Source: an uncultured Candidatus Saccharibacteria bacterium
Lineage (GTDB): Bacteria > Patescibacteriota > Saccharimonadia > UBA4664 > CAZJNH01
Length of the DNA stretch: 64,000 bases
Direction of reading: 5' to 3'
NCBI GenBank assembly: GCA_964547425.1
Contig: CAZJNH010000006.1
Span: 6,095 to 70,094 of the forward strand
The notes beneath the pieces are model-generated. The model saw nothing but the letters and a program-made list of their open reading frames with translations. It made no database searches and was not told where the DNA came from. The stretch's first letter is position 1. Every line of letters starts with the position of its first letter. A program made the translations under genes and the position numbers. Positions 1 through 37,569 of this stretch are shown here, piece after piece.

Positions 1-100
1 TGTTAACCGTGATTACGGCCAAAACATCACGATCACAGCTCTCCCCCAACTGCTCGAGTACCTGCCTCTTTTGGCAGCGTAGCCCAATGGTTAGGAGGAA

Positions 101-445
101 ATGATGCCGAAAAAGGTGTTGATTGTCGAGGACCACCCGCTAATGATGGCGGCACTCGGCAAGGTGGCTAGGGATCTCGGTGCCAAAGTTGGCTATGCCA
201 AAACGATAGCCGAGGCCGAACAGCATCTCGCCGATGAGCAGTACGACATCATCGTGTGGGATGGGTACTTAGGACAGGAGTCGACGCTGTCGCTGATCAA
301 ACAAACCGCCAAGCGGTTTAAAGGGCCAATGATCGCGAACAGTTCCGACTTCTCGATGGCTAAGGCCCAGATGCAGTTTGGCTGCACCGACTACCCGCGT
401 GAGGGCGACGCCTTCGATCTGCTGAAGAAGCTGATCGAAAAGTGA
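101..445 (+). CDS. Stand-alone response-regulator receiver (CheY-like REC) domain protein
   Basis: 114 aa; N-terminal KVLIVEDHPLM and overall REC-like layout; AGGAGG RBS 6 nt upstream of ATG; followed by intrinsic terminator. Confidence 0.55.
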   Translation: MMPKKVLIVEDHPLMMAALGKVARDLGAKVGYAKTIAEAEQHLADEQYDIIVWDGYLGQESTLSLIKQTAKRFKGPMIANSSDFSMAKAQMQFGCTDYPREGDAFDLLKKLIEK

Positions 446-476
446 CCCGCCGGAAACGGTGGCTGAACCGAACTGA

Positions 477-515
477 AGACCCCATCCACGACGGATGGGG
501 TCTTCTTCTTTTCTA
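477..515 (+). terminator. Rho-independent terminator between convergent REC gene and rpsI
   Basis: GACCCCATCC-acgac-GGATGGGGTC hairpin followed by TTCTTCTTTTC. Confidence 0.7.
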
Positions 516-908
516 GCGTTTCTTCCACTGGGCGGCTTTGCGCGCCCGCTTTAATCCAGGCTTCTTTCGTTCCTTTTCCCTGGGATCACGAGTCAAGTAC
601 CCGGCTTTACGAAGTGATGCTTTGTTGTCTTCGCTAAGCTCAACTAAGGCACGGGCGATAGCTAACCGAGCCGCTTCGGCTTGTCCACGTTTGCCGCCTC
701 CACGAACCTTTAGGCTGGCACCAAGCTTTTTGTCCTGACCGACCAAGATTAACGGTTGGCGTACGGACTCTACTAGTACCGGACTGGCAAAGTATTCTTC
801 AACTGTTTTGTCGTTAACTACAATGTCTTTTGCGCTTGAGCTAAGCCGGACGGTAGCGACCGCTTCTTTGCGGCGGCCGAGGCCTTTGTGAAAATCTGTA
901 GCTGGCAT
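513..908 (-). CDS. rpsI: 30S ribosomal protein uS9
   Basis: 131 aa; translation ends in the basic tail ...ARKAAQWKKR typical of S9; immediately downstream of rplM. Confidence 0.93.
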   Translation of the reverse strand: MPATDFHKGLGRRKEAVATVRLSSSAKDIVVNDKTVEEYFASPVLVESVRQPLILVGQDKKLGASLKVRGGGKRGQAEAARLAIARALVELSEDNKASLRKAGYLTRDPREKERKKPGLKRARKAAQWKKR

Positions 909-1342
909 TATTTAATCTCCAATTTCTTAGGGGTTTGGCCGGCGTGCGCGTGTTCAGAGCCCGCGTAGACCTTGAGGTGCGACATACGCACCGCTTTTAG
1001 CCGGTTTTGGGGCAGCATGCGTTTGACGGCCATCTCGATAACCTCAGTTGGTTTCTCGTTTAACTTCTCGGCTAGACTAGCTTCTTTAATACCGCCAGGG
1101 TAACCGCTATGGCTAAAGTATTTCTTGTCTTCAAGTTTATTGCCCGTGACCCGTATCTTTGCGGCGTTGATAACGACAATGTTGTCGGCCAAGTCTAGGT
1201 GAGGCGAAAAGGTCGGTTTGTGCTTGCCTTGGAGTAAGGTCGCAACTTTTGTAGCCAAACGGCCCAAAGTCACACCGCTGGCGTCAATCAAGTACCAGTC
1301 GTGGGTGATTTCGGATGGTTTGGCGGTATGAGTCTTAAACAT
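908..1342 (-). CDS. rplM: 50S ribosomal protein uL13
   Basis: 144 aa; L13-like sequence, rplM-rpsI adjacency. Confidence 0.93.
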   Translation of the reverse strand: MFKTHTAKPSEITHDWYLIDASGVTLGRLATKVATLLQGKHKPTFSPHLDLADNIVVINAAKIRVTGNKLEDKKYFSHSGYPGGIKEASLAEKLNEKPTEVIEMAVKRMLPQNRLKAVRMSHLKVYAGSEHAHAGQTPKKLEIK

Positions 1343-1824
1343 TATTTTGCCCCAACCTTAGTTTTTGGCTTAGCCACGGTTTGTTTAGCAGCCGATTTCT
1401 TCGCGGCAGGTTTCTTCTCGCTAGTTTCTACCTTCTCACTGGCCTCTTTGGCTACTGGAGCAGGCTTGAGTCCAGCCGGTAAAACCAAACTGACTATGGC
1501 AACTGGGGCATTATCGCCTCCGCGATTGCCGGCTTTGACGACCCTGGTGTAGCCGCCTTGGCGATCCTTCCAGGCAGGTGCCAACTCTTCAACTAACTTT
1601 TGAACAGCAGAGTCGGTGGTTAAGCGGGAACGTAGTAAACGCCGATCGGCCACGGTCCCGGACTTAGCAAAGCTAACCAGTTTTTCAACGTAACGCCCGG
1701 CGACTTTTGCTTTCGAAACCGTAGTGGTCATAGTCTCATGCAGCACGAGTGAATTGGCCAACGACTTAAGTAATGCTCTTCGCTGGTCACGCTCGCGGCT
1801 GAATTTTGGGCTTTGGCCGTTCAT
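1342..1824 (-). CDS. rplQ: 50S ribosomal protein bL17 with Lys/Ala/Pro-rich C-terminal tail
   Basis: 160 aa; L17 core followed by a roughly 40 aa AKP-rich tail; follows rpoA. Confidence 0.92.
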   Translation of the reverse strand: MNGQSPKFSRERDQRRALLKSLANSLVLHETMTTTVSKAKVAGRYVEKLVSFAKSGTVADRRLLRSRLTTDSAVQKLVEELAPAWKDRQGGYTRVVKAGNRGGDNAPVAIVSLVLPAGLKPAPVAKEASEKVETSEKKPAAKKSAAKQTVAKPKTKVGAK

Positions 1825-2796
1825 TTAATCCTCGTCGGTCTCCCCTTTTTCAAAACCCATCTCAGTCAGCTTGTCTTTGACCTCGTTGTAGGCCTTTGAG
1901 CCAAAGCCCTTGAGGTCCCGCAGCTCTTCATCGGACAAGCGCAGAAGGTCGCGGACGGTCTTGATCTCGTTGTTTAATAGCGCGTTAGTGGTGCGCGGCG
2001 TCAGGTTAATTTCTTCAACCATAATCTTAGCGGCGTTGTCGGAACCGTCTTCGGTGGTCACAGCCTCGGATTGAGGGGCCTCGCGGCCGGCTACGACACC
2101 AAAGTGCTCAACCAATAGTTCAGCTGCTTGGGCCACGGCGTCGGCTGGGCTAACGGTACCGTCGGTCTCAATATCTAGCACCAAACGGTCGAGGTCGGTC
2201 ATTTGGCCGACACGGGTGTTTTCGACCGAGTAGCGTACGCGCTGGACCGGGCTGAACAATGCGTCAACGGCGATCATGCCAACTTCCAGCTTTTCGCTTT
2301 CGCGGGATTCAACCGGCTGGTAACCGCGACCTTTTTCGATCTTAATTTCCATACCGATTTTGGATTTAGCATCGTCGAGAGTTGCGATCACCAGTTCGGG
2401 ATTTGCGATTTCAACATCGGAGGTGACTTTAATATCGGAGGCTTTGACCGGGCCTTTGCCGGTTTTGGTCAGAACCAGATACTGAGGTTCGTCGGAGTAA
2501 ACCTTCAGGCGCAGTTTCTTGAGGTTAAGCAGGAGGGAAATAACGTCCTCTTTAACTCCAGGAATCGTCGAAAATTCGTGCGACACGTTGTCGATTTTGA
2601 CGGCTGTAACAGCGCCGCCGCCGAGGCTCGAGAGAATCACCCGGCGAAGTGCATTACCCAAAGTCATACCATAACCTGGGTGTAGCGGTTCGATGGCGAA
2701 GGTGGCGCGATTGCCGTCGTCTTTAGTTAGTTTGAGTTGTGGGAGCTGGATGGGGTGAAGCACGTTTTTCTCCTTATTATCGTGAATAGAATTCAA
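1825..2796 (-). CDS. rpoA: DNA-directed RNA polymerase alpha subunit
   Basis: 323 aa; alpha NTD plus alpha CTD (…INLTPRTTNALLNNEIKTVRDLL…); between rpsD and rplQ. Confidence 0.95.
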   Translation of the reverse strand: MNSIHDNKEKNVLHPIQLPQLKLTKDDGNRATFAIEPLHPGYGMTLGNALRRVILSSLGGGAVTAVKIDNVSHEFSTIPGVKEDVISLLLNLKKLRLKVYSDEPQYLVLTKTGKGPVKASDIKVTSDVEIANPELVIATLDDAKSKIGMEIKIEKGRGYQPVESRESEKLEVGMIAVDALFSPVQRVRYSVENTRVGQMTDLDRLVLDIETDGTVSPADAVAQAAELLVEHFGVVAGREAPQSEAVTTEDGSDNAAKIMVEEINLTPRTTNALLNNEIKTVRDLLRLSDEELRDLKGFGSKAYNEVKDKLTEMGFEKGETDED

Positions 2797-3394
2797 TAAT
2801 TAGCTGTTCGGAAATCTCTTCCATAATGTCGTCCCGAACCGGATGGCCGGTGACTTTAGCGGACAGCTTGGAAGACTCTAGACTTAGCCAGCGGCTGTCG
2901 AGTTTGGACTGTTTCAGATCGGTGACAACCTTTTGGAAATAAGGGTTTTTCTGGCTTTTTTCGCGGACCTCTAGCTCATCGCCCGGTTGTAAGCTAATCG
3001 ACGGGACGTTAACTCGGCGTCCGTTGTGCAGAATGTGGCCATGGCTGACTAGTTGGCGAGCACCTTGTCGGCTAGGTGCCCAGCCGAGACGGTAAACGGC
3101 GTTGTCCATGCGTTGCTCTAGCAGAATTAGGACGACTTCACCGCTAATGCCTTCCTGGCGTTCAGCTTCCGCGACGATCCGGCGGAACTGCTTTTCAAGA
3201 AGCCCATAAATTCGCTTCACTTTTTGCTTCTCGCGCAGCTGCAGGGCGTACTGGCTGTCTTTGGTCCGGCGGCCGCCTTTGCCATGTTCTCCAGGGCCGT
3301 AGCCGCGTTTAGTCAGGCCTTTAATCGCCTTCGGATGCATCGCGACGCCTTCGCGGCGTGAACGCTTAAGGGTTGGGGCTAAATCGCGTGCCAT
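2777..3394 (-). CDS. rpsD: 30S ribosomal protein uS4
   Basis: 205 aa; S4 N-terminal KRG motif and S4 RNA-binding domain; overlaps rpoA start by 20 nt. Confidence 0.93.
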   Translation of the reverse strand: MARDLAPTLKRSRREGVAMHPKAIKGLTKRGYGPGEHGKGGRRTKDSQYALQLREKQKVKRIYGLLEKQFRRIVAEAERQEGISGEVVLILLEQRMDNAVYRLGWAPSRQGARQLVSHGHILHNGRRVNVPSISLQPGDELEVREKSQKNPYFQKVVTDLKQSKLDSRWLSLESSKLSAKVTGHPVRDDIMEEISEQLIIEFYSR

Positions 3395-3395
3395 A

Positions 3396-3791
3396 TTACT
3401 GCTTCCTCGGTTTTCGCGGGCGGCAGCCGTTATGAGGAATGCCGGTGACGTCTTTGATGCTAGTTACGGACAAACCAACGGTCGAAAGGGCGCGCACAGC
3501 CGATTCACGGCCGCTCCCGACGCCTTGCAGATAAACATCCACCTTTTGCATGCCGAGCTCTTTAGCAGCCGTCGCGGCCTGTTCGGCGGCGATACTGGCG
3601 GCGTACGGGGTTGATTTGCGGGAACCTTTGAAACCGGCGGCACCAGAGGAACTCCAAGCTATCACTCCGCCTTTTTCGTCGGTGATCGAGATAATCGTGT
3701 TATTAAAAGTCGCCTTGACGTGCACTTGGCCAACGGCCACGCTGCGTTTTTGCTTCTTTTTCCGGGTTGTAGTGGTTTTTGGGGCTGCCAT
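3396..3791 (-). CDS. rpsK: 30S ribosomal protein uS11
   Basis: 131 aa; C-terminal [13 protein letters not shown] typical of S11. Confidence 0.95.
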
Positions 3792-3799
3792 ATTAATCC

Positions 3800-4186
3800 T
3801 TAAGTCTTAGAGGCCGCTTTAGCCCGGCCGGAACCGACGGTGACGCGTTTGCCGCGTTTGGTACGGGCATTAGTTTTGGTACGCTGTCCGCGAACCGGCA
3901 AATTATTCTTGTGCCGCAAACCGCGGAAGGAATTGATTTCTTTGAGCCGACGAATGTTACCGGAAACTATCCGCTGAAGGTCGCCTTCAACCTGGAGCGT
4001 CTTTTCGATCTGCTCGCGGATTTTCGAGACTTCGGCTTCGGTCAGATTCTTAACTCGGGTGTTAGGGTCGACGCCTGTTACGGTAATTAGCTTCTTGGCG
4101 GTTGAGTTACCAACGCCGTGGATGTAGGTCAAAGCAATTTCAACCCGTTTGTCGTTTGGTAAATTAACTCCGGCAATACGCGCCAT
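3800..4186 (-). CDS. rpsM: 30S ribosomal protein uS13
   Basis: 128 aa; [11 protein letters not shown]-terminus typical of S13. Confidence 0.95.
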
Positions 4187-4299
4187 TAGCCCTGCCTCTG
4201 CTTGTGCTTAGGGTTATCGCAGATCACAAAAACTACTCCGTCGCGGCGGACGGTCTTGCATTTGGAACACATTGGTTTGACGCTCGCTCTAACCTTCAT
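4186..4299 (-). CDS. rpmJ: 50S ribosomal protein bL36 (zinc-ribbon type)
   Basis: Not in the ORF track (37 aa); minus-strand translation [37 protein letters not shown]; stop overlaps rpsM ATG (TAATG). Confidence 0.85.
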
Positions 4300-4307
4300 T
4301 GCACTCC

Positions 4308-4532
4308 TTAGTTGTTGTGTCTATAAGTAATTCGGCCTTTGGTCAGGTCGTAAGGGGTCATCTCTAAGGTCACCTTATCTCCCGGCAAAATCTTGATGTA
4401 ATGCATCCGCATTTTGCCCGAGATATGTGCTAAAACAACATGGCCGTTCTCGAGTTCTACCCTAAACATAGCGTTTGGCAGGGTTTCGCGAACGGTCCCT
4501 TCGACCTCGATTACTTCCTTTGTATCACTCAT
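4308..4532 (-). CDS. infA: Translation initiation factor IF-1
   Basis: ORF track gives 95 aa, but the conserved IF-1 sequence starts at the internal [14 protein letters not shown]…; the S1-like fold gives 74 aa. Confidence 0.9.
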
Positions 4533-4551
4533 GGTAAGACTACAGCGCTTA

Positions 4552-4580
4552 ATTCTACCCAGATTTAGTACTCCTGTAAA
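4552..4580 (-). promoter_or_regulatory. Sigma-70-like promoter upstream of infA-rpmJ-rpsM…
   Basis: minus strand TTTACA-17 nt-TAGAAT about 20 nt upstream of infA ATG. Confidence 0.45.
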
Positions 4581-4598
4581 GACTTTTAAATACAAAAA

Positions 4599-4630
4599 CG
4601 GCCCGGGGAGTCTTGTTCCCCGGACCGCAA
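4599..4630. repeat. 31-nt GC-rich hairpin repeat, copy A (partner at 5785..5815)
   Basis: CGGCCCGGGGAGTCTTGTTCCCCGGACCGC; CCGGGGA/TCCCCGG stem; on the minus strand it is followed by TTTTTGTATTT so this copy also looks like a terminator. Confidence 0.6.
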
Positions 4631-4633
4631 GAG

Positions 4634-5149
4634 TTACCGTGTTTGATTGATCCCTTCTCCGCCTCCGTGCGGATGCCCGATACCTTGACCCGTGCTAAGC
4701 AATAAGCCATGAAACGCTCGGTTGCCCCTAGCGTCCGCCAGCGAATTATGCGTCGCCCCTTCGGGCACCGGCTTATGGGTGACGCCGAGTCGGTTGGCCC
4801 AAGGCTTCAGATCGTTTGCGTAGCTGGGCCAGGTGGCTGGCCGGTCGATCATCCGCCCAAACAAGCCGCATAGGACGACCCAGTCGTAAGCGCAGACGTA
4901 GCCCCAGAACTCAGGGTCGTGGTCGTTTCTGACGAATTCCTCAACTTCTCGGGCAATAAGGATTGCCGTCTTTGATTGGCCTAACAGGTGCGGTCTGGTG
5001 TTTTCGGCGTGCCAACCATCGAAGTCCAGCGACCAGTCAACCTTGGCGAACTCCGCGTAGTACTCGCGGTCGTCCTCACTGACGATCCCGAGACTAATCG
5101 GCACCGGCTGAATGTAGTCGATGAACTCTGTGTCGAAGAAGTACTTCAT
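4634..5149 (-). CDS. DEDDh-type 3'-5' exo(ribo)nuclease, Rv2179c-like family
   Basis: 171 aa; N-terminal MKYFFDTEF (exo motif I DxE) characteristic of the Rv2179c-like 3'-5' exoribonuclease domain; ATG overlaps the stop of the upstream HD gene (ATGA). Confidence 0.55.
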
Positions 5150-5760
5150 TGCTCACCAGTGATGCGTTTGGCGCCTGTCCAGGCGTCGTCGTTGCGCGGG
5201 AAGTCGTAGAACGCCCTCGCGCTAAGAAGATCGCAGCTGTGGCACAACGCCGCCAGCGGCAGCATGATCCGAGAATCCGGCGTGTAATCCTCGTCGCGGA
5301 TGCCTTCGACGTACTTGAGGGCGTTTTCCTGCGTCGGCGTCAGCTTAATCCCGTACTCCCAAAGCTTCGACTGCGCAAACTCTTTACGAGCCGCTTTTGT
5401 CTTCAGCTCCGGAATCACGACCAACTCACCGTCCTCAAACCGCGTGCGCCACGGCTTCTCGATGTCATGGAGGAACAAGACGAGCAGACCGTCGGACAGT
5501 GTGATTCGCTCATCGCCCGACAACTGATCGAGTCGGCCTGTACTCTCGATTGCGCCGTAGAACAACACGAACCAGTTCATGGCGTCGGTGACATGGTCCC
5601 AGTAACCACCGGGCCAAGCCTGGTGGTTGTGCGTCGATCCCGGCGCCGCCTGGAACAGCTCGCGGTGGTCGTAGAGGATCTGCCGGCAGACCGATTGGTT
5701 CGGCTCGTTGATCATCATCACCATCTCGTCAAGGTAGTAGTACTTCGGCTGTTCGCTCAT
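5146..5760 (-). CDS. HD-domain phosphohydrolase (start trimmed to MSEQPKYYYL…)
   Basis: H…H (STHNHQAW) … LFLHDIEKP … D pattern of an HD domain; AAGGGAG RBS 4 nt upstream of the internal ATG; the ORF track's longer N-terminus overlaps the hairpin repeat and purB. Confidence 0.45.
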   Translation of the reverse strand: MSEQPKYYYLDEMVMMINEPNQSVCRQILYDHRELFQAAPGSTHNHQAWPGGYWDHVTDAMNWFVLFYGAIESTGRLDQLSGDERITLSDGLLVLFLHDIEKPWRTRFEDGELVVIPELKTKAARKEFAQSKLWEYGIKLTPTQENALKYVEGIRDEDYTPDSRIMLPLAALCHSCDLLSARAFYDFPRNDDAWTGAKRITGEQ

Positions 5761-5784
5761 GCCGCTCCCTTGGTTTGGTTGAGG

Positions 5785-5815
5785 CGGCCCGGGGAGTCTT
5801 TGTTCCCCGGACCGC
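5785..5815. repeat. 31-nt GC-rich hairpin repeat, copy B
   Basis: CGGCCCGGGGAGTCTTTGTTCCCCGGACCGC, 1 indel versus copy A; sits just after the purB stop and before the HD gene RBS. Confidence 0.6.
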
Positions 5816-5821
5816 TCGAAG

Positions 5822-7270
5822 TTAGAACGAGACACTCGAACTGGAAGTGTCGGGATTGAGCGCGCTCCCGCTTGATGCTGAACCAGCATTGCCATCGAGA
5901 TAACGCTGCCATTTCGCGGCGATCTCTTGAGCCCTCTCGTACGCCAGCCCAATGTACGGGTTGGCATTTTCGATCAAGGCAACTTCATCGGCCGTGAAGC
6001 GCTCCACATACCCGGCGATCTCCAGGTCTTCCTGAATGAAGCGTTGGAGTGAACGCGGATTACCGGTCCGACGAGCTTCGCGCCAGGCCTGCGTAACCAC
6101 GCGAACGGCTTCATGCGCGTCCGGGTGGCCGTACTTGGCGAGCAGAATATACAGCGGCTCCGCCAGTATGGCGCCCTCGCTGGAGGCAAGGTTCCGGTCG
6201 AGGTTCGTCTGGTCGACACGCAGCTTGTCCATTGTGCGTGTCAGCCGCTTGGCCATCACCACTACGTAGTTGACGATCTCGGCGTTAGTCCGGCCAGACG
6301 CGGAGCCAGTGAGGTCGCGCTGATGCTCGCTGATTTGATCCAGGTACAGCGTGCCCAGTCTGCCAACGAGAACCTTCCACATACTTTCGATGTTCTCGAA
6401 GTTGATCGGGTTGCGCTTCTGCGGCATCGTCGACGAACCTACTTGTTCGGCGCCGAACTCCTCGCCAACCTCGGCGATCTCGGTCCGCTGCAGGTTGCGC
6501 ATGTCGCGTGCCAAGTTCGCCATCACCCCAGCCGCCACGACCATCTCGGTCAGTAACCGCAGCATCGGCTCCGGCGGCGCGATCTGGGTCGAATGAGTAG
6601 CAGGTCGCAGACCAACGTAACTCAACAATCGTCCCTCGAACTCCATCGGGTTGTCGACGACAAGCTGCGACGCGTTGTAAGCCCCAACCGCGCCAGAGAA
6701 CTTGCCGACCAACTCAGAAGCCCTCTCATCGATCCTCTTGATCGACTGACCCAAACGCTCGGTGATCCCGGCCATATAGAAGCCGAAGGTGATCGGAACG
6801 GCGTGCTGGCCATGCGTCCGGCCAACCTGCACCGTCGCCGACTCCTGCCGCGTGATGTCGACCAGTATTCGCAGTAGTTTCTTGAGAGCCGGGACGACAA
6901 CGTCGTAGGTCACGTCCTTATACCTCGCGGCGTTGGCTGTGTCGACGATGTCGAATGAAGTAGCGGTCATGTGCACGTAAGGCTTGGCTTCGTCGCTGAC
7001 CTTGGCTTGGATGCAGTTGACCAAGGCCCGGATGTCGTGGCGAACCCGATCCTCCTCGGCGTAGACCTCTTCGGTTGTAATCTTGGAGCAGGCCTGGGCG
7101 ATCTCGAAGGCGGCTTCAGCCGGACAGATGCCGAAGTCCGCCAGCGTTTTTGCCAATGATGATTCGACCCCCAGCTTGTAGCGGGTAAAACCGTTCTCAG
7201 ACAAACATTCCGCCACCTCTGGGTCGAGGTAACGGTAGTCGGCCGGCGAAATCGCGTCGAATTTGTCCAT
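5822..7270 (-). CDS. purB: Adenylosuccinate lyase
   Basis: 482 aa; fumarate-lyase signature GSSTMPQKRNP; has an unusual 25 aa Ser/Gly-rich C-terminal tail. Confidence 0.9.
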   Translation of the reverse strand: MDKFDAISPADYRYLDPEVAECLSENGFTRYKLGVESSLAKTLADFGICPAEAAFEIAQACSKITTEEVYAEEDRVRHDIRALVNCIQAKVSDEAKPYVHMTATSFDIVDTANAARYKDVTYDVVVPALKKLLRILVDITRQESATVQVGRTHGQHAVPITFGFYMAGITERLGQSIKRIDERASELVGKFSGAVGAYNASQLVVDNPMEFEGRLLSYVGLRPATHSTQIAPPEPMLRLLTEMVVAAGVMANLARDMRNLQRTEIAEVGEEFGAEQVGSSTMPQKRNPINFENIESMWKVLVGRLGTLYLDQISEHQRDLTGSASGRTNAEIVNYVVVMAKRLTRTMDKLRVDQTNLDRNLASSEGAILAEPLYILLAKYGHPDAHEAVRVVTQAWREARRTGNPRSLQRFIQEDLEIAGYVERFTADEVALIENANPYIGLAYERAQEIAAKWQRYLDGNAGSASSGSALNPDTSSSSVSF

Positions 7271-7271
7271 A

Positions 7272-8333
7272 TCAGCTCCTCTTGAACTTTGAGGTCATCT
7301 CGGCAACCTCGGCGTAGTTCTGCTTAATCTTGCCAAGCTCCTTGGCCTTGGCCGCTGGATCGTCGACACCAGCGAGGTCGCGATAGACCTGCTTGTCCTT
7401 CATCTGCGCCTTGTCGCCGCCCGGCCAGATCCGCCACGAGTCGTTGTCGATCACATCGGCAACGGCCAGCCGGCCGTCGTGCAAGCGGCCGAACTCGATC
7501 TTGAGATCGACCAGTTGGACTTCCTGCTGCCGCCAGGCGTCTTCGATGACCTCGAAGACCTTCACGGTTGTTCGCACCATCTCGACCGTCTCATCGATGG
7601 TTTGCTGCGCCCTGACCGGCAGGATGGGCTTCTCTTCGATGTAGCCCACGCCGAGCGGCTTACCGGCCTCGTATAGCAAGTAGCGCCAGCCGACAAAGTC
7701 CCAGATCATTAGCGGATCGTGGCGCTCGTCGTCTTTGAGGAAACACTCGACGACGAGCGGGGCGAGCACCGTGCCTTCGGCAACTTCTCGGTTGCGCTTT
7801 AGGTACGAACCGGTGGCGATGCGCCGGGCCACCCACTCCATTGGCAACATTTCTGCCTTGAGCGCGTGGAAAACGGTTGGGTCGCTGTCGTCGGGCCCAA
7901 GGTAGTGCGTCAGCACGTGCGGGTCGATCAGCTCGAAGACGTTGCAGGTCGTCCGCGTGGCATTGACCGCCTTATCTTCGAGCAAATCACGGCTCGCGCC
8001 GTCGCCGGCGGTGATGTCGTTCTTGCTCTCGATCATCACCCGCTCTCTAACACGGGAGGATGAATCTGGGTGTTCCCAGATGATCTTCGTCTTCCCTTCC
8101 GCCAACTTCCAGGGCAGCCGTTCAACTTCGATGTTGCTGTATTTCTTCAGCCAAATCGGCTCTTCCTGTTCAGAAACGTAGACAGGACAAATCCCCGGTC
8201 CGTCGTTGCCTGATGAGCCATCCGGAGACATTACCGGCCGACTGACGGTGAAGGTCTTCCCCTCGTGCTCGAACCGGTCGCCTTGGCGCATGCCGTCATC
8301 GGTAACCGTCCAAGTCTTATATGTGGCAACCAT
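7272..8333 (-). CDS. purC: Phosphoribosylaminoimidazole-succinocarboxamide (SAICAR) synthase
   Basis: 353 aa; SAICAR synthetase family similarity; start 2 nt upstream of the purB start. Confidence 0.85.
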   Translation of the reverse strand: MVATYKTWTVTDDGMRQGDRFEHEGKTFTVSRPVMSPDGSSGNDGPGICPVYVSEQEEPIWLKKYSNIEVERLPWKLAEGKTKIIWEHPDSSSRVRERVMIESKNDITAGDGASRDLLEDKAVNATRTTCNVFELIDPHVLTHYLGPDDSDPTVFHALKAEMLPMEWVARRIATGSYLKRNREVAEGTVLAPLVVECFLKDDERHDPLMIWDFVGWRYLLYEAGKPLGVGYIEEKPILPVRAQQTIDETVEMVRTTVKVFEVIEDAWRQQEVQLVDLKIEFGRLHDGRLAVADVIDNDSWRIWPGGDKAQMKDKQVYRDLAGVDDPAAKAKELGKIKQNYAEVAEMTSKFKRS

Positions 8334-8390
8334 AATTGCCTCCTTGTCAAAGGTCGAAACAAAATCAGCGGCCCGTTGCCGCTCGCGTAG

Positions 8391-8396
8391 ATTATA
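8391..8396 (-). promoter_or_regulatory. Perfect -10 (TATAAT) of the purC promoter
   Basis: minus strand …TCCGGTATAATCTACG… about 55 nt upstream of the purC ATG; AAGGAGG RBS; a weak -35 falls in the terminator T-run. Confidence 0.4.
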
Positions 8397-8416
8397 CCGG
8401 ATTTTTGATACGAAAA

Positions 8417-8447
8417 AACCCGGGCCGTGGTTGGCGCCGGGTTTTTT
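8417..8447. terminator. Bidirectional intrinsic terminator
   Basis: AAAAAACCCGGGCC-gtggtt-GGCGCCGGGTTTTTTG; an A-run and a T-run flank a GC hairpin. Confidence 0.7.
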
Positions 8448-8459
8448 GTGAACGAGCTT

Positions 8460-8922
8460 CGCTGACGAACGCAGCCAGATGCGGCTGTTTTAACTTACCC
8501 GCTTTCTCTGTCGACTCTTTCATCCGGCTTACGCCGTGCCGAGTAGCCGATACACTCGACTTTAGGCTCCCTATTTATCGCTGGGCTTTGTTCACTGGAA
8601 CCATGCGCACGTTGTGCGCGGCGGGTATATTTTACCCAGTGTCTTTGTACCATCCAGCGAGGAGCTATCGTTTGCCCATCGGAATCACCCTTTCGGCTGA
8701 AGCGATGAAGCGGAACGAAGCGATGGTCTCGGGACCCACCGTTTCGTTCCTAGAATAGAACCGAACCACGTACCCGAGAAGTACATCCTCTCTAACTGGA
8801 CGGAGCCAGTTTAACGGGAGGAGAGGAGGGCTCCCAACGACGTCGCGGTGATCTGCTACTCGTCTTGCTGCGACTGCAATATGGTGGCCCAAGTGGCCTG
8901 ACGAACCGCGCTCTTGCGCATG
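8460..8922 (-). ncRNA. Candidate non-coding RNA (orphan transcription unit, identity unknown)
   Basis: Bounded by the strong promoter at 8929..8957 and the terminator at 8417..8447; no ORF with an RBS or plausible composition; rich in internal hairpins; RNase P, tmRNA and SRP signature motifs were not found by eye. Confidence 0.3.
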
Positions 8923-8928
8923 ACGAAG

Positions 8929-8957
8929 AATATACCCGCCATAACCACTTCTGTCAA
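8929..8957 (-). promoter_or_regulatory. Strong sigma-70-like promoter
   Basis: minus strand TTGACA-17 nt-TATATT. Confidence 0.55.
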
Positions 8958-8961
8958 GAAG

Positions 8962-9040
8962 TTGTAATTCGCTAACCTGAAAAGGGTTACACCCTTAACA
9001 GATTGGAAAATTACAAGTTTTGGGAAAATTGAGTCAAATT
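8962..9040. repeat. 80-nt intergenic repeat, copy 1 (partner 51477..51557)
   Basis: about 90% identical to 51477..51557; contains the AAGGGT-tac-ACCCTT hairpin and the TTTGACTCAA core (minus strand); starts 2 nt after the stop of the 9043..9375 gene. Confidence 0.7.
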
Positions 9041-9042
9041 GG

Positions 9043-9375
9043 CTATTCGAGGTCGAAGGCGAGGAGACCTTGGGTGGCGATTTTTTCTTTGTAGCCTGGA
9101 AAACTGTAGTAGATTGCTTCAGCTTCTTTGAGGGTTTTGGTGCCGGGCATGATAGTTTCTTGCGGGATCGTATCGAGCAGGGATTTGATGTCGGAAAAGT
9201 GCTGGACGGACTTTACGGTCTTCATCGCCGAATCTTTGCCACAAACGACGGTGATTTTGTCACCGGCCTTGACTACCTGGAACTTAGAGGTTGCGGCGCG
9301 AGTTTCCACGCTTTTTGTGCCATTGACGACACTATCAAACTTATCTCGATCGACTTCGCGGAACCGGAGGATCAT
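9043..9375 (-). CDS. ASCH (PUA-like) domain protein
   Basis: 110 aa; N-terminal MILRFREVDRDKFDSVVNGTKSVETR resembles ASCH-domain N-termini; abuts secY. Confidence 0.45.
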   Translation of the reverse strand: MILRFREVDRDKFDSVVNGTKSVETRAATSKFQVVKAGDKITVVCGKDSAMKTVKSVQHFSDIKSLLDTIPQETIMPGTKTLKEAEAIYYSFPGYKEKIATQGLLAFDLE

Positions 9376-10689
9376 CTAGTACTTTTCGTAGGAGGTCATG
9401 ACGGCTTGGGACTGGATTTGGTTCATTGTTTCGATGGCGACCGAGACGACAATCAACAGACCGGTACCGCCGATGGTCAGTAGTGTGCGGTTGGTAAGTC
9501 TTTGCGCTATGAATGGTAAGAGCGCGATCACACCAAGTCCGGCAGCTCCGGCGAGGGTAATGCGGTTAACGACGCGGCGCAGATAGCTGGCGGTTTCTTT
9601 GCCAGGACGAACGCCGGGGATGAAACCACCTTGTTTTTGGAGGTTTTCGGCGATATCGTCAGGGTTAAATACGACCGAAGTATAAAAATACGTGAAGATC
9701 ACGACCAACGCGAAGTAGCTAACCGCGTAGACCATGCTGGTCGGTGAGAATAACGTACTGGCGCGCTGGGCGATCGAAGCAATGTGTGCGCTGTGGGCCT
9801 TGGCAAACAGCTGTCCCAAAAAGCCTGGAACAGATAGAAACGCAAGGGCAAAGATGATAGGAATAACACCCGCGAGGATGACTTTTAGCGGCAAATGAGT
9901 TTCGACTCCGCCATAGACGCGGCTGCCTCTGACCCTGCGCGCGTAGGAGACCGGGACATTCCGCTGGCCTTCGTTAAGTAACACCACGAAGGCGATAACT
10001 ACCACAGTCGCGACCGCGAATAAGATCAACTGCAGCGACGTGCCGCTATCGGTCTTCGCTAACTGAATGAACTGGCCAAACTGGGACGGTAAACGCGAAA
10101 CGATTCCGGCAAAAATAAGCAGCGAAATACCGTTGCCGATACCTTGCTCGGTAATAATTTCACCAATCCACATTAGCAGTAAGCTCCCGCCGGTGATCGC
10201 CGAGATCATAACCACCCATTGGAATAGATCCGGATGGCCGATGAGGTCAATTTGGAGCTGGCTTTTACTGGCCTGCTGAATCAGAAAAACCATACCGAAC
10301 GACTGCAAGATAGCCAGAGGTACGGTTAAAAGCCGGGTGTATTGGTTAATCTTCTGCCGCCCGGCTTCCCCTTCCTTACTCAAGGCTTCCATCTGAGGGA
10401 TCACCTGCTGCATCAGCTGCATAATAATTGAGGCGTTAATGTACGGCGCCACACCCATCATGACGATCGAGAAGCTGGTTAAAGCTCCCCCAGAAAATAA
10501 ATCGGCAAAGCCAAGCAGCTGGTTCGAGGAAAACAGTCGTTGCAGGAAGTTGGCTAAAGCCGCGTTGTCAGGAACCGGCACCGGCACGTGGGCCAGCAAT
10601 CGGAATAAAATCAACAAGGCGCCGACGATTAACAGGCGCTTTCGGAGCATCTTGGACCGCAGGATCTGTTTGATGCTGGCTAAATTCAT
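9376..10689 (-). CDS. secY: Preprotein translocase subunit SecY
   Basis: 437 aa polytopic membrane protein after rplO. Confidence 0.95.
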   Translation of the reverse strand: MNLASIKQILRSKMLRKRLLIVGALLILFRLLAHVPVPVPDNAALANFLQRLFSSNQLLGFADLFSGGALTSFSIVMMGVAPYINASIIMQLMQQVIPQMEALSKEGEAGRQKINQYTRLLTVPLAILQSFGMVFLIQQASKSQLQIDLIGHPDLFQWVVMISAITGGSLLLMWIGEIITEQGIGNGISLLIFAGIVSRLPSQFGQFIQLAKTDSGTSLQLILFAVATVVVIAFVVLLNEGQRNVPVSYARRVRGSRVYGGVETHLPLKVILAGVIPIIFALAFLSVPGFLGQLFAKAHSAHIASIAQRASTLFSPTSMVYAVSYFALVVIFTYFYTSVVFNPDDIAENLQKQGGFIPGVRPGKETASYLRRVVNRITLAGAAGLGVIALLPFIAQRLTNRTLLTIGGTGLLIVVSVAIETMNQIQSQAVMTSYEKY

Positions 10690-10697
10690 TGGCTCGC

Positions 10698-11135
10698 TTA
10701 CTTAATTAACTCTACTTTACCACCAGCTTTTTCGATTTTGGCTTTGGCGCTGGCGGAAATTGCGTTGAGTTTGACGGTAACGGCCTTTTTGATCTCGCCG
10801 TCGCCTAGTAGCTTGACTGGCTTGTCTTCATCGGGCACGTAGCCAGCTGCGGCTAAGACCTTGGCATCAACACTGGCTTTGCCCAGTTTCTCGAGAATAG
10901 TAAGGTTTACGACCTGGAATTTGACCTGCAGATGCGGTTTAAATCCGCGTTTTTTAGGCAGCCGGCGATACAGTGGATTCTGTCCTCCTTCAAATCCAGG
11001 GCGAACTCCTCCGCCAGTGCGGGCGTTTTGGCCTTTGGTACCACGTCCGGCGGTTTTCCCTTTACCGGAACCGATTCCGCGGCCAACGCGTTTGCCAGGT
11101 GATCTTGCTGTAACTTTTAACTCGTGGACTTTCAT
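10698..11135 (-). CDS. rplO: 50S ribosomal protein uL15
   Basis: 145 aa; Gly/Arg-rich N-terminus typical of L15; follows rpsE directly, with no rpmD. Confidence 0.92.
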
Positions 11136-11743
11136 TTCGTTGCCTTCTTCGTTGCAGTTTGCTTAGTAGCTGGTTTCTTCTTCGGAGCAGCTTTTTTAAC
11201 CGCTTTTGGCTTGGTTTCTGTCTTGTCTTCTACTATTTCAGCCGGTACTTCCTCGACTGTCTTTTCAGCCTTCGGTTTGCCACCCGGCATCGGACCCAGC
11301 TGTTTTAGGCTCGTTAGGGCCTCAAAGGTCGCATATGCAGTGTTAACTTTGTTGCTTGAACCGAGCGATTTGGTCAGCAGGTCGCGAATTCCGGCAGCCT
11401 CGACAACGTTACGGACCGCGCCGCCGGCTATTACCCCTGTTCCGGGAGAAGCTGGCTTCAAAAGCACCACAGCACCGGAGAAGGTGACTTGGATTTCGTG
11501 CGGAATCGTCCCTTCGTGAAGTTCAATCTTTACCATACTGCGCTTGGCGCGAGTGGTAGCTTTGGCGATCGAGGTCATTACCTCGCCGCCCTTACCGACT
11601 CCCACGCCGACCTTACCGGCACCGTCACCAACTACGACTGTAGTACGGAAACGGAAACGGCGGCCGCCTTTAACCACCCGAGAGACGCGGTCAATCGAGA
11701 TAACTTTTTCTTCAAATAGTGACGGTTCACGTACAGGAGGCAT
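11132..11743 (-). CDS. rpsE: 30S ribosomal protein uS5 with Lys/Ala-rich C-terminal tail
   Basis: 203 aa; S5 dsRBD plus C-terminal domain, then a roughly 40 aa KPKA-rich tail. Confidence 0.92.
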
Positions 11744-12108
11744 TAGAACTCCAATCCATTCTTACGGGCCGCTTGGGCCAGCGCGTCGAGCCGGGCGTGG
11801 TATTTTTTGCCGCCGCGGTCGAACACAACTTGCTTAATCTTACCCTTCGAGGCGACTTTGGCAATCTCAGCTCCGGCCCATTCGGCTTTAGCCTTCAAGC
11901 TACCTGGGGTTTTAGTGTTTACAGTCGACACAAACCCCAAGGTTTTGCCCTCGGCATCATCAATCAGCTGCGCAACCACGTTTTTGTTACTAACGTGTAC
12001 AGACAAACGAGGACGCTCGGCCGTTCCAGTGAACCGACTGCGGGTGCGAATGACCCGACGCTTGGTTTGATTCAGCTTTAACTTCTGTTCTTTTAGCATA
12101 TTAAGCAC
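11743..12108 (-). CDS. rplR: 50S ribosomal protein uL18
   Basis: 121 aa; L18 family. Confidence 0.92.
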   Translation of the reverse strand: MLNMLKEQKLKLNQTKRRVIRTRSRFTGTAERPRLSVHVSNKNVVAQLIDDAEGKTLGFVSTVNTKTPGSLKAKAEWAGAEIAKVASKGKIKQVVFDRGGKKYHARLDALAQAARKNGLEF

Positions 12109-20062: not shown

Positions 20063-21340
20063 TTACCTCATGTAGCGATAGATTGTGCCGGTCGTCCCAA
20101 TCATCCAGGGAATACCGTTGGAGTCGACGGTAATATCCTGGGCGCCTCCGCTGATATTGGCCCAGTTGTTGCTTTCATTTCTGTAAAAGATGGCATGATT
20201 GTGGTTAACTCCCCAAACTTCGTTGTTTGGTCCGATACCTACATCAGCTAACCCGCCAGAGTTTTTATGCCAGGGGCTGCCGGAGTTGTCGTAAACATTG
20301 CCTGTGGTGTCGGATTCATTGCTAAGCGCCCAAGTGTTGCCGCCGGCCGTGCCCTCGATTCTGACTATGTAAGGATTCGGGTTGGAGAAGGTCGGCCAAC
20401 AATAGGAGAGAGTATGCCCTGGGCAATCGGTTTTACCGGTCCAGCGGTAGGTCTTGCCGTTGGTTCCATCGAGCCAAACCGCGCCGTTCCAGGCCGTACC
20501 GACGTCGGCAGCCACAGCGTTCATGCCTCTATATGTCCCGCTGATGTACCTGACCAGAGTATGACTGCTGCCCGATATAATCCAGGCGCTGCTAGAGTCA
20601 ACGTCAACCCGGTTAACCAGGCCGCCGCCTCCCTTGTCCGCCCAAGCGGTATTGTTGTTAACACGTTGGTAGAGGTCACCATTGGTGCCAGCGATCCAGA
20701 CTCCGGCGCGTCCAGCACCGATATCTTTGCCTGTACCGCCAACAGCGTACCAGTTGTCGAAGTGGCCGGTGCCAATCACGTCCCCTGCCGGAGTCTGATA
20801 CTCCTGAACCGCCTGGCCCCAGTTACCAGCTATAGTGTCGATGCCACCCTGGTTAGCCGAAACCACAATTCCAACGTGCCCACTTCCGTCTCCGTTGGTA
20901 TAAACCATATCTCCGGGCTGGATATGGCTAAGCTGATAGCCGCCGTACCATTGGCCATGAGCCGCAAACCAGTCTTTCATATCGCCTGTGCTCGGAATGT
21001 CCCAGTCTCCGTCGGCTGGGGAGTAGCTCCGTCCGGTGCCTTTAATGATGCGGTTACCAGAATTGGCGTAAACCCAGCTAAGAAAGTCGGCGCACCAAGC
21101 CTCACAACGGTGGGCGTACTTGGTGCAGTTTCCAGTGCCTGAAGGAGTCCCTCCGGTCTCGTGGTAGCCAATTTGGCTTTTAGCGATAGAGACGATGTTG
21201 CTGCCATCGCTGGCATGAATTGAAAGTAATCTGACCGTAAAAAAGGTCGAGGCCAGAGCTATAACACCTAGCGCCAAATTGAGGTTGAATCTTAAGCCAC
21301 GGGCTATTCTGAGTCTCTTTGTTGCGGTTCTACTTGGCAT
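20063..21340 (-). CDS. Membrane-anchored CHAP-domain peptidoglycan hydrolase fused to propeller/lectin-like repeats
   Basis: Cys…His CHAP-like core (NCTKYAHRCEAWCADF…GHVGIV) then repeated …G..W..G.NG..Y… units; start trimmed to MPSRTATKR…TM helix (the ORF track begins 99 nt earlier). Confidence 0.6.
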   Translation of the reverse strand: MPSRTATKRLRIARGLRFNLNLALGVIALASTFFTVRLLSIHASDGSNIVSIAKSQIGYHETGGTPSGTGNCTKYAHRCEAWCADFLSWVYANSGNRIIKGTGRSYSPADGDWDIPSTGDMKDWFAAHGQWYGGYQLSHIQPGDMVYTNGDGSGHVGIVVSANQGGIDTIAGNWGQAVQEYQTPAGDVIGTGHFDNWYAVGGTGKDIGAGRAGVWIAGTNGDLYQRVNNNTAWADKGGGGLVNRVDVDSSSAWIISGSSHTLVRYISGTYRGMNAVAADVGTAWNGAVWLDGTNGKTYRWTGKTDCPGHTLSYCWPTFSNPNPYIVRIEGTAGGNTWALSNESDTTGNVYDNSGSPWHKNSGGLADVGIGPNNEVWGVNHNHAIFYRNESNNWANISGGAQDITVDSNGIPWMIGTTGTIYRYMR

Positions 21341-21535
21341 TGACGCTGTGCTCCGTTTTGGCTGGGTCATAAACCGGCAGATGCTTGATCCGGTTGTCAT
21401 CCATCCAGCGTTGAGTGTAGAAAAAAAGCACAACCGCAAAGTTAATGGCGATTGCCAGAATTAAAAAATTACGGGTCGTTAGCCAGCTTGTTTTGTGTTT
21501 TGCCATTACTTAGAGCCTAGAAGCATAAGCGTAAT

Positions 21536-22609
21536 ATGTCAAATACAAAAACGTGCTGTGCTAAAATACTTCTTATGAATCCAGAATCACCACAACCAGG
21601 ATCGGAACAAGATCAAAACTCCGGGCAGCAGCTGGCCCAAGAACTAAACCAAATTCAGGCCGAGCAGGCCCAGGACAAACCTGCCGAACCCACCAAAGAC
21701 GGCCGCTTTCGGCGCTGGACCCGCAATGCATTAATTGCAGCAGGCATTGGGGGCGCTCTCGGAGGCGCCGAGCTCGCTACACACCAGCAGGAAAAGCCCG
21801 ACAAGGCTCCTACACCATCCACATCCCCGGTGACGCCAGAGCAGACAGAGGCGCCGCCGTTTCTAAATCAATTCGCGGCAGAACGGGCAAAGCCTTTCAA
21901 GATTGGAGAGATCGACAATATTATTAAAGTTGGTAACTTCGAAACCCTCAAACAGCATCAGCTTCAAGTCGTTGACCGATTAGCCTCCAGCGAAAAATCA
22001 ACTTTCACAGCGATCAGTATGGACGGCGAAAAACCGCCAGTGGATCTAAACGATTTCGCTTTTGGAAACCAGGTTGCGAACGAGGTGGCAGGTAGCGGCA
22101 TTAGCATCAACTACCAGTACACGCAGGGTAATGAGGTTAAAAACGCTACCTTTCAAGTCAAAGCCCGAACTCCGGAAAACACCTACGTTATCTTCGTCCC
22201 CGAAAGTACCGATCTATCGAAATACGAGCCGAGTACCGGACAAGGTGCCGAGGCTTTTACTCACTGCTCCGAAAACGCTTGCGTGACAATGCTCAAAAAC
22301 GCCCAGCACACACCTGAAGGAGCTGAACCGGCAACAGGTATTAGTACCAACCGGATCAACGCCTTCACCGCGGCTATGCAATCCTCATTCGAGGTCACGG
22401 GTGGACAGGATGCTGCCGAAAACGCGATCGGCTTCAATGCTTTCACTAAAGGCGTTGGAACCGCTTTAACCAATATTGAGTCCGGCCAAGACTACGAAGC
22501 CTATAGCTCATACGTTAGCGTGCCTCCCGGCGGCGAACAGGCCCAACCTCCGATATACAAGGTAGACCAACAGACCTACAAGCAAATGTCCGATCAGCTC
22601 TACAAGTAG
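21536..22609 (+). CDS. Hypothetical membrane-anchored protein (Q/P-rich linker plus C-terminal globular domain)
   Basis: 357 aa; one TM segment (ALIAAGIGGALGGAELA); the start is uncertain and may be the internal MNPESPQ… at 21575. Confidence 0.5.
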   Translation: MSNTKTCCAKILLMNPESPQPGSEQDQNSGQQLAQELNQIQAEQAQDKPAEPTKDGRFRRWTRNALIAAGIGGALGGAELATHQQEKPDKAPTPSTSPVTPEQTEAPPFLNQFAAERAKPFKIGEIDNIIKVGNFETLKQHQLQVVDRLASSEKSTFTAISMDGEKPPVDLNDFAFGNQVANEVAGSGISINYQYTQGNEVKNATFQVKARTPENTYVIFVPESTDLSKYEPSTGQGAEAFTHCSENACVTMLKNAQHTPEGAEPATGISTNRINAFTAAMQSSFEVTGGQDAAENAIGFNAFTKGVGTALTNIESGQDYEAYSSYVSVPPGGEQAQPPIYKVDQQTYKQMSDQLYK

Positions 22610-22624
22610 TAAACAGCCTACTTT

Positions 22625-23971
22625 TTACGGAGTGTTGCGCCAGTAGACGTAAACTTGACCGTTCTTGCCGATAATCCAAGGCTTACCGTGCACGTCCACG
22701 CTAATCGCCTTACCTCCACCTTGCAGGGTGGGATTCCAGTGAGGTGAAGTGGTTGACCCATTCCACTTGTAGACGGTTGCGCTGGAGTTTACTATCCACA
22801 CTCCGTTGTCGCCGCCGATGCCGATATCAATCGCACCGCCGGTAATTTTTTTGTACACATTGCTGCTCCAGTAGTAGATGTTACCTGCGGTTTCGGACTC
22901 ATTACTGATAATCCAGGATCCACCGCCGGCGCTCACATCGATGCGCTTTGCGAACGGCGCGGGCGGCGTGGTCGATTGCCTAGGCCAAGAGGGACTGGAT
23001 GTTGAGCCATTCCATTTATAAGTATTGCCGTTGGTTCCAACTAGCCAGACGACACCGCTGGATCCGATTCCAATGTCTGATGCCGTGGCATTCATGTAGG
23101 TCCAGGCCGGGCCGCGGAAGACATGGCTATGGTCGGCGGTGTTAATGCGCCATGGGTTGCTGGGATCCATGTCTATATGAGAGGTGCCAGTACCAGCCAA
23201 CTGGGTCCAGCTTGAGGAATTTAACCTGTAAACCCTGCCGTCGGTCGCGGCAACGTTAACGCTATTCATTACACCAATGTCGGTCGCCTGCAGGCCGTTT
23301 GGCAAATCGGGCATTTTAGTCCATGAAGAGGCGTATTTATTGAAAGCCGCTGTAACTTGAGACTGGACGTCGTAAAAGGTGTACGCGGCACAAGCGGAGT
23401 CTTTGCAGGATGGCGGGGGCCCGGGAGTTGCCTGGAAGTGGACGTGCGACCCATTACCGCATTCGCCGCCGGCATTGCCAACGGTGCCGAGCGTCGTACC
23501 AGCCCCTACCGACGCACCGGAGGTGATGTTGCTGGGCATCGAGTTGGGCGTTAGGTGGTAATACGCGTAGTAGATACCGTCGCTGCCGTGAATCGCCACC
23601 TGGTCCTCCGCTGCGTAATGCCTGGCGCTATAAATCGTACCGGCCTTCGCCACCTGAACGATCCGTCCGCAGGGGGCAAAAATATCCGAAGCGTTGTAGT
23701 CATGATGGACGTTGTAATTTAGAGCGTACGATCGTTTTTCAGCGGACGGCCAATGATCGGCGATATCAGCCTTGGTGGTTCTAAGCGGGAAGGCGCTTAG
23801 TGCCGGGATGGTAGCAGCGTGGCTAAAGAAGATCCAATATACCCCGACCACCGATACCAAAGCCAAAAGCACAATTAGAGTAGTCTTGTTGGGCTTAAAC
23901 CTTTTCGATAGTTTTCGCTTTGCGCGCACTTTCTTCCTTTTCCTAGGCATCATTAGTAACAGTACAAGCAT
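22625..23971 (-). CDS. Membrane-anchored M23 (LytM-type) metallopeptidase fused to propeller/lectin-like repeats
   Basis: 448 aa; HxxxD (HHDYNASD) and HxH (SHVHF) M23 motifs, then repeats similar to those in 20063..21340. Confidence 0.6.
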   Translation of the reverse strand: MLVLLLMMPRKRKKVRAKRKLSKRFKPNKTTLIVLLALVSVVGVYWIFFSHAATIPALSAFPLRTTKADIADHWPSAEKRSYALNYNVHHDYNASDIFAPCGRIVQVAKAGTIYSARHYAAEDQVAIHGSDGIYYAYYHLTPNSMPSNITSGASVGAGTTLGTVGNAGGECGNGSHVHFQATPGPPPSCKDSACAAYTFYDVQSQVTAAFNKYASSWTKMPDLPNGLQATDIGVMNSVNVAATDGRVYRLNSSSWTQLAGTGTSHIDMDPSNPWRINTADHSHVFRGPAWTYMNATASDIGIGSSGVVWLVGTNGNTYKWNGSTSSPSWPRQSTTPPAPFAKRIDVSAGGGSWIISNESETAGNIYYWSSNVYKKITGGAIDIGIGGDNGVWIVNSSATVYKWNGSTTSPHWNPTLQGGGKAISVDVHGKPWIIGKNGQVYVYWRNTP

Positions 23972-26667: not shown

Positions 26668-26693
26668 GCCTCTATTATAAGGTATTTGTTTAA

Positions 26694-26750
26694 GGTCTAA
26701 CCCTTTTTCGTCTCGACCTTTATTTTCATAGATTGTATAGGGTTAGACCT
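26694..26750. repeat. 57-nt palindromic intergenic element, copy a
   Basis: AGGTCTAACCCT-ttttCGTCTC…gatTGTAT-AGGGTTAGACCT; 12-bp perfect stem. Confidence 0.7.
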
Positions 26751-26753
26751 TGG

Positions 26754-37552: not shown

Positions 37553-37569
37553 TTTTTGCACTTTTAGCA

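Follow-up and report, generated by a model that had tools for sequence, protein, structure and literature searches.

Two copies of a terminator-type stem-loop around an HD nuclease and DEDDh exonuclease gene pair in a Candidatus Saccharibacteria contig

The window analyzed here, a 64-kb stretch of contig CAZJNH010000006.1 from an uncultured Candidatus Saccharibacteria bacterium, contains two near-identical GC-rich hairpins that flank a pair of genes, one for an HD-domain protein and one for a DEDDh 3'-5' exonuclease, between a purB-like gene and infA. The observation is confirmed, and the interpretation first given to it is partly supported. We put at about even the chance that one terminator-type RNA stem-loop is present twice in a single accessory operon. 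The description that fits the feature best is a terminator stem duplicated within a four-gene operon that was probably imported; the nuclease pair in it is idiosyncratic.

Sequence and anatomy of the two hairpins

On the plus strand, the hairpin beside the exonuclease gene (copy B, 4599-4628) reads CGGCCCGGGGAGTCTTGTTCCCCGGACCGC (30 nt), and the hairpin beside the purB-like gene (copy A, 5785-5815, 31 nt) is the same sequence with one additional T in the loop. Along the minus strand, on which the genes are encoded, copy B (4599..4628) is GCGGTCCGGGGA-ACAAGAC-TCCCCGGGCCG, 5 nt past the exonuclease TAA, and copy A (5785..5815) is GCGGTCCGGGGA-ACAAAGAC-TCCCCGGGCCGC, 6 nt past the purB TAA; the copies are in direct orientation with a start-to-start distance of 1186 nt. 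Self-BLAST of the window aligns them at 96.8% over 31 nt (E 1.3e-5). An earlier interpretation made without database searches (the sequence-only reading) had described two near-identical GC hairpins differing by one indel, which the 30/31 identity confirms, with copy B ending at 4628. It had also placed exactly two translationally coupled genes between the hairpins, and the whole between purB and the infA promoter; both statements hold, the HD and exonuclease genes overlapping by ATGA and the gene order and a promoter-like site at 4552..4580 matching the placement.

The repeated similarity is confined to the hairpin. The flanking sequences have only 'TAACT' at both stop codons in common, and comparison of the purB and exonuclease 3' ends revealed no homology outside the hairpin. 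Both copies fold as 12-14 bp stems (copy B, free energy −25.6 kcal/mol, z −3.9; copy A, −28.7, z −3.0), uninterrupted except for one G-U wobble; the stem of copy A is extendable by 2-3 pairs, to 5782-5818, and copy A is the second most stable 40-nt hairpin of the window. Chance similarity or an assembly artifact is a negligible explanation for the pair. GC-rich CCCGGGG-type stems are indeed common as terminators in this genome and in high-GC metagenomes, but identity at 30 of 31 positions, loop included, is not expected by chance: in 100 shuffles, 0 matches were expected both for the full hairpin motif, of which the 64 kb hold two copies and no third, and for the stem pattern CCGGGGA-N(3-12)-TCCCCGG, whose only matches in the window are copies A and B. 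Moreover, a Logan contig from an independent assembly (SRR9179562, 4081 nt) matches window positions 4503-8583 at 100% across both copies and both junctions; the two-hairpin arrangement is therefore not peculiar to one assembly, and an artifact is effectively refuted.

Copy B is followed directly 3' of its stem by the U-run TTTTGTATTT (4588..4597, minus strand), which makes it a complete intrinsic terminator in form, and together they constitute the top-ranked terminator-like site of positions 1-12000 (12 pairs, 9 of them G-C, and a 7-nt loop). Because the infA promoter-like site TTTACA-17-TAGAAT (10/12; 4552..4580, minus strand), the downstream boundary of the operon, begins less than 20 nt past it, copy B has the anatomy of an intrinsic terminator ending the upstream unit. 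Copy A, in contrast, has no U-run: its tail, AACCAAACCA, is free of T over the ten bases that follow the stem. The HD start codon lies 23 nt past copy A, preceded at 5 nt by a Shine-Dalgarno sequence read from the DNA (AAGGGAG, 5766..5772, minus strand), and a promoter scan detected no promoter-like site between copy A and that start. The HD and exonuclease genes would thus be expressed only via transcription across copy A, which in turn suggests inefficient termination at copy A. As to the proposal that the repeats represent a duplicated attenuator or terminator, copy B has terminator anatomy; copy A, which lacks a U-run and lies inside the operon, does not qualify as a canonical terminator. 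As to whether the hairpin is simply a common motif, within the 64-kb window the exact hairpin occurs only twice, although its stem style does recur: further terminators share CCCGGGG/CCCCGGG stems with differing sequences, and we therefore regard the hairpin as ordinary terminator material of this genome, here duplicated.

The operon would be read in the order promoter, purC-like gene, purB-like gene, hairpin A, HD nuclease, DEDDh exonuclease, and hairpin B with its U-run, with RNA polymerase reading through copy A to express the nuclease pair. Copy A, from its sequence context, is most likely an intercistronic stabilizer or partial terminator, that is, an internal RNA barrier, and it would act on the RNA level either as a barrier to 3'-5' decay or as a weak, leaky terminator. 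It would thereby set a ratio, the purC-purB segment accumulating above the nuclease segment, as with the repetitive extragenic palindromic (REP) stem-loops in malEFG. The hairpin duplication would date from the joining of the nuclease pair to purC-purB, an event that may have been a recombination within or beside the terminator hairpin. The four genes may also share a nucleic-acid salvage theme, comprising two predicted exonucleases releasing mononucleotides and purine interconversion enzymes; NT5C and NUDIX genes also occur among the translation genes of the window.

Several points weigh against this interpretation. The stems of A and B are identical and hence provide no covariation that would show selection on the hairpin. 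In this lineage, which has been little studied, hairpins without a U-run might nonetheless end transcription, and termination at copy A would leave the HD and exonuclease genes poorly expressed. The repeat coincides exactly with the hairpin and has no flanking homology, as is seen more often with mobile or site-specific elements than with segmental duplications. Finally, the salvage theme is drawn from annotation, and the HD gene has no conserved partner at the loci compared.

The nuclease pair and the four-gene operon

The HD-superfamily protein (5146..5760, minus strand, 204 aa) has a YhaM-like HD nuclease domain without an OB fold, and its start codon is supported by alignment to homologs. 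The metal-binding residues of the H...HD...D pattern (H46, H56, H98-D99 and D177) do not vary across the 39 sequences compared, and the protein has the YhaM HD-domain fold, in agreement with the HD assignment of the sequence-only reading. It aligns only to YhaM residues from approximately 116 on, with no N-terminal OB domain, and is predicted to be an OB-less YhaM-type nuclease. The family to which it belongs is unnamed, has no Pfam model and comprises more than 300 members, mostly from Patescibacteria and some from huge phages; homologs were found on 15 IMG/VR contigs, of which several measure 300-600 kb, and on a huge-phage record of 635 kb (LR745206.1). The closest homolog (63%) sits directly upstream of recJ.

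The exonuclease (4634..5149, minus strand, 171 aa) is an Rv2179c/RNase AS-like DEDDh 3'-5' enzyme whose start ATG overlaps the HD stop (ATGA). It passes the Pfam PF16473 gathering threshold (30.2 bits vs 27), and D6, E8, D89, H134 and D139 align to the Rv2179c structures (PDB 4oke and 6s0m, E ~1e-18). The profile search and the DEDDh residues thus support the earlier suggestion of an Rv2179c-like 3'-5' exo(ribo)nuclease. The protein scores under the NCBIfam NF033638 RNase AS equivalog cutoff (86.2 bits vs 200), and its nearest relatives (~50% identity) are encoded on phage contigs beside terminase and portal genes and are annotated as DnaQ-like or RNase H; a homolog of the exonuclease was found in 295 phage records.

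The HD and DEDDh enzymes had been likened to a two-enzyme module for nanoRNA, pGpG/pApA or cyclic oligonucleotides, here delimited by hairpins, and we consider such a module very improbable. Neither the exonuclease nor purB nor purC was found within 6 kb of the HD homolog at any of 99 loci (84 genomic and 15 viral), so that a dedicated nanoRNA or cyclic-oligonucleotide module finds no support and the idea is not borne out; conserved synteny of both genes with purB in relatives, the other arrangement considered at the outset, is equally absent from these loci. Clustering of the neighbors at the 99 HD loci identified no conserved partner, the commonest neighbor family occurring at 6. The pairing of the two genes is a local, one-off juxtaposition absent from the relatives examined, and little therefore follows from it directly, although the ATGA overlap indicates that the two are now expressed together. 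The closeness of the pair to translation genes is incidental. A role in anti-phage defense was considered separately and set aside, as PADLOC returned no matches.

The upstream half of the operon encodes purine-biosynthesis-like proteins. The purC-like protein (7272..8333, minus strand, 353 aa) contains a normal SAICAR synthetase domain (Pfam SAICAR_synt, 148 bits, passing the threshold; TIGR00081, 86 bits, under the 190 equivalog cutoff), yet is no more than 55% identical to anything else, and its 75-aa N-terminal extension (8109-8333) is covered by none of 1744 homologs. The purB-like adenylosuccinate lyase (5822..7270, minus strand, 482 aa) passes Pfam Lyase_1 and ASL_C but falls under the TIGR00928 equivalog cutoff (288 bits vs 326). 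It is ~60% identical to many proteins of Patescibacteria, including Parcubacteria, that are annotated as adenylosuccinate lyase and adjoin carB, pyrF or a purC-purE fusion; its 22-aa low-complexity C-terminal tail (within 5822-5890) is absent from 11 homologs. Single-sequence viral scans with both proteins gave no match. The nearest relatives of the HD and purB-like proteins suggest that the host belongs to the Patescibacteria and is probably Saccharibacteria-like.

Along the minus strand the gene order is secY (10689-9376), an ASCH-domain gene (9375-9043), an ORF-poor stretch, the purC-like, purB-like, HD and exonuclease genes, and infA; past the infA promoter-like site follow infA, rpmJ, rpsM, rpsK, rpsD, rpoA and rplQ. 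The stretch of ~700 nt without credible open reading frames (ORFs) between the ASCH-domain and purC-like genes closes in a strong, bidirectional-type terminator, AAAAAACCCGGCGCC...GGCCCGGGTTTTTT (8418..8452, minus strand; free energy −27.1, z −5.0), which ends the ORF-free transcript and forms the upstream boundary of the accessory operon. A TATAAT −10 hexamer (8391..8396, minus strand) is a candidate operon promoter recognized by eye, with no good −35 and not called by the promoter scan, and within the ~50-nt leader of the purC-like gene a small terminator-like hairpin with a U-rich tail (8367..8383, minus strand) is a possible attenuator. The four operon genes have a GC content of 0.57-0.59 and a third-codon-position GC content (GC3) of 0.70-0.78, compared with a window mean GC3 of 0.60 ± 0.08, and the HD and exonuclease genes do not differ in composition from purC-purB. 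The segment from the purC-like gene to the exonuclease thus stands out by composition as a single transcription unit placed between the operons of secY and infA, and it was probably imported.

Within the ORF-poor stretch, ~500 nt free of ORFs (8415-8930, minus strand) lie between a near-consensus promoter, TTGACA-17-TATATT (8957-8929), and the terminator at 8452-8418, with a minimum-free-energy z of −3.25; this segment is a candidate for a structured RNA outside known families or a long purC operon leader. At gathering thresholds the whole window is without an Rfam match, and for 4500-5900 and 8250-9150 the same was true at E≤1; a tRNA/tmRNA search found none. The possibility that 8335-9042 is a decayed adk or map gene was rejected, as its six-frame translations contain no recognizable motifs. 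Exact-protein look-ups of SecY, IF-1 and L36 gave no match. Farther along the window, NT5C-type 5'-nucleotidase and NUDIX hydrolase genes downstream of fusA (47884-50152) form a second instance of nucleotide-metabolism genes amid translation genes; a low-GC island (0.40-0.45) with a PD-(D/E)XK nuclease and an N6/N4 DNA methylase (34654-37570) is probably an acquired restriction-modification system; and two large proteins encoded at 20063-23971 contain both a Tectonin and a cell-wall hydrolase domain (CHAP; peptidase M23).

Origin of the repeat and other hairpin repeats in the window

That the repeat is exactly the hairpin would fit hairpin-specific recombination, or a small mobile palindrome, better than random segmental duplication. 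In the first of these alternatives, the nuclease pair and one hairpin would be a mobile cassette that a recombinase, either site-specific or acting on single-strand hairpins (integron-like or IS200/IS605-like), integrated at an existing terminator hairpin of purB, leaving the hairpin as flanking direct repeats. We regard this as rather unlikely. It accords with the exact coincidence of repeat and hairpin between unrelated flanks, with the direct orientation of the copies around a compact, translationally coupled two-gene block, and with the occurrence elsewhere of the HD and exonuclease genes each without the other, the closest exonuclease relatives lying in phage contigs. However, no integrase, transposase, REP-associated tyrosine transposase (RAYT) or recombinase domain was found among the window ORFs scanned, and the nuclease pair has the same composition as purC-purB. 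The 31-nt hairpin also lacks the R/L boxes (R''-L''/L'-R'), the unpaired central spacer and the extrahelical bases that define attC sites (PMC2727003). The site-specific insertion proposed by the sequence-only reading hence remains unproven, the hairpin being unlike attC and the scanned window ORFs containing no recombinase. The exact hairpin is likewise absent from IMG/VR, and JGI metagenome contigs gave only chance stem matches: 35 matches to the stem pattern were obtained, on contigs of 0.53-0.75 GC with no similarity to the window, and their differing loops and flanks led us to reject the hairpin as a widespread element in the collections searched. No copies of it were present in the 99 related HD loci.

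Further hairpin repeats in the window bear on the same question, since two other loci carry terminator-type hairpin direct repeats around high-GC3 genes (39778-39859/40249-40330 and 41626/41972/42689), which speaks for capture. Overall, short intergenic repeats that form hairpins fall into at least five families in the window, three of which bracket high-GC3 accessory genes. At the first locus, an 82-nt direct repeat (95% identical; 39778-39859 and 40249-40330, plus strand) is made up of the 3'-terminal 26 nt of a 105-aa gene and the intrinsic terminator of that gene, and brackets a gene for a 118-aa membrane protein (39894-40250, GC3 0.75). This locus looks like an insertion beside a terminator with target duplication, but the 26 nt of coding sequence in the repeat point to homology-driven rather than hairpin-specific events. 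At the second locus, a 41-nt hairpin (plus strand; 41626-41666, 41972-42012, 68% identical, and 42689-42729, 98%) trails each of three successive small high-GC3 genes (117, 71 and 194 aa, with no Pfam match). It has a 17-18 bp stem, a GAAA loop and no U-run, three compensatory pair changes preserve the stem in the diverged copy, a variable CCCCGA...TCGGGG hairpin precedes each copy, and a canonical bidirectional terminator (42735-42766) follows the last. The genes at both loci have a GC3 of 0.75-0.79.

Alternatively, the hairpin could be a small mobile palindrome, similar to REP elements or miniature inverted-repeat transposable elements (MITEs), that inserted independently at two post-stop sites, the bracketing of the gene pair being incidental; this, too, is unlikely. 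The repeat is itself the palindrome, both copies lie 5-6 nt past TAA, at TAACT, and, of the five or more families of intergenic hairpin repeats, two are dispersed over 19-42 kb and start at stop codons (8962-9040/51478-51556; 26691-26770/45595-45663/39276-39357). The hairpin also shares with REP elements and bacterial interspersed mosaic elements (BIMEs) the form of a short imperfect extragenic palindrome (30/31-nt, intergenic). Nevertheless, only two copies exist in the 64 kb, and a single operon contains the two within 1.2 kb; scanning of the window ORFs revealed neither a RAYT nor a transposase, and neither the 99 related HD loci nor the public collections searched contain a copy.

Of the two dispersed families, one is a 79-nt repeat (91% identical; 8962-9040 and 51478-51556, 42 kb apart) that forms a long hairpin (−22 and −33 kcal/mol) and begins exactly where two minus-strand genes unrelated to each other stop, the ASCH-domain gene and one for an ABC-F ATPase. 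The other, a three-copy, 56-80-nt family (blastn 75-83%; 26691-26770, 45595-45663 and, inverted, 39276-39357), consists of a large loop closed by a GGTCTAACCC...GGGTTAGACC stem; the stops of a DinB-like gene and of fusA immediately precede two of the copies, and the third is in the intergenic region upstream of tuf.

Together, the 82-nt and 41-nt loci demonstrate that the hairpin-bracketing architecture recurs in this genome. A shared regulatory design of accessory operons, in which stable, U-less stem-loops follow cistrons, is more likely to explain the recurrence than hairpin- or homology-linked gene addition, given that the 41-nt family shows compensatory changes and has GNRA-type loops. 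A more far-reaching proposal is that terminator-type hairpins are the joints of an undescribed gene-accretion process, integron-like in outcome but operating without attC or IntI, by which imported high-GC3 genes would be strung into small operons with a hairpin copy left after each captured unit. The window contains three hairpin-bracketed units (4.6-5.8 kb, 39.8-40.3 kb and 41.6-42.7 kb); we nonetheless judge this proposal quite improbable.

Taken at face value, the feature is an ordinary operon layout in which a terminator is accompanied by an internal copy of its stem. The hairpins themselves offer little that is new, and the unnamed YhaM-like HD family is moderately novel; our reading of that family provides a testable function for a widespread 'hypothetical protein' of nucleic-acid-scavenging organisms. 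If the hairpin repeats do represent an acquisition or regulation route for accessory genes in reduced genomes, a genome-wide survey would be worthwhile.

Comparison with known systems

YhaM, the 3' exonuclease of Bacillus and Staphylococcus (PDB 9h3f), binds its substrate by an N-terminal OB-fold (PMC12107432, PMC11347170); the HD protein, in contrast, is only 16% identical to YhaM, has no OB-fold and belongs to a separate, unnamed family. The exonuclease resembles RNase AS/Rv2179c in length and in its DEDDh catalytic residues, but differs in scoring under the equivalog cutoff and in having phage genes as its nearest relatives.

The core consensus of attC sites is RYYYAAC / GTTRRRY, and neither core is present in the hairpin in direct reading. 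The ORFs scanned in the window include no recognizable integron integrase, and neither an attI nor a CALIN array of attC sites was found. The arrangement is nevertheless like that of integron cassettes in its succession of ORF and palindrome and in the direct repeats around gene-sized units (PMC2727003), and the hairpin array after successive ORFs at 41.6-42.7 kb extends the likeness. It departs from them in the element itself, which at 31 nt has no boxes, central spacer or extrahelical bases.

Copy B is like intrinsic terminators in its GC-rich 12-bp stem, 7-nt loop and U-run and in its operon-end position before the next promoter. Copy A has the same stem but, lying inside the operon without a U-run, is not a canonical terminator. 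Its closest counterpart would be the intercistronic REP/BIME stem-loops of Escherichia coli malE-malF, which reportedly stabilize the upstream mRNA (Newbury and Higgins, 1987). REP elements proper number in the hundreds, lie dispersed, carry a conserved GTAG head and are linked to RAYTs; the present hairpin has two copies in the window, within a single operon, and the scan of the ORFs revealed no RAYT. Copy A is nevertheless like the malE-malF elements in being a stable, U-less stem-loop just past a cistron stop within a polycistronic unit, in its repeated sequence and in the differential expression of proximal and distal genes that would be expected from it.
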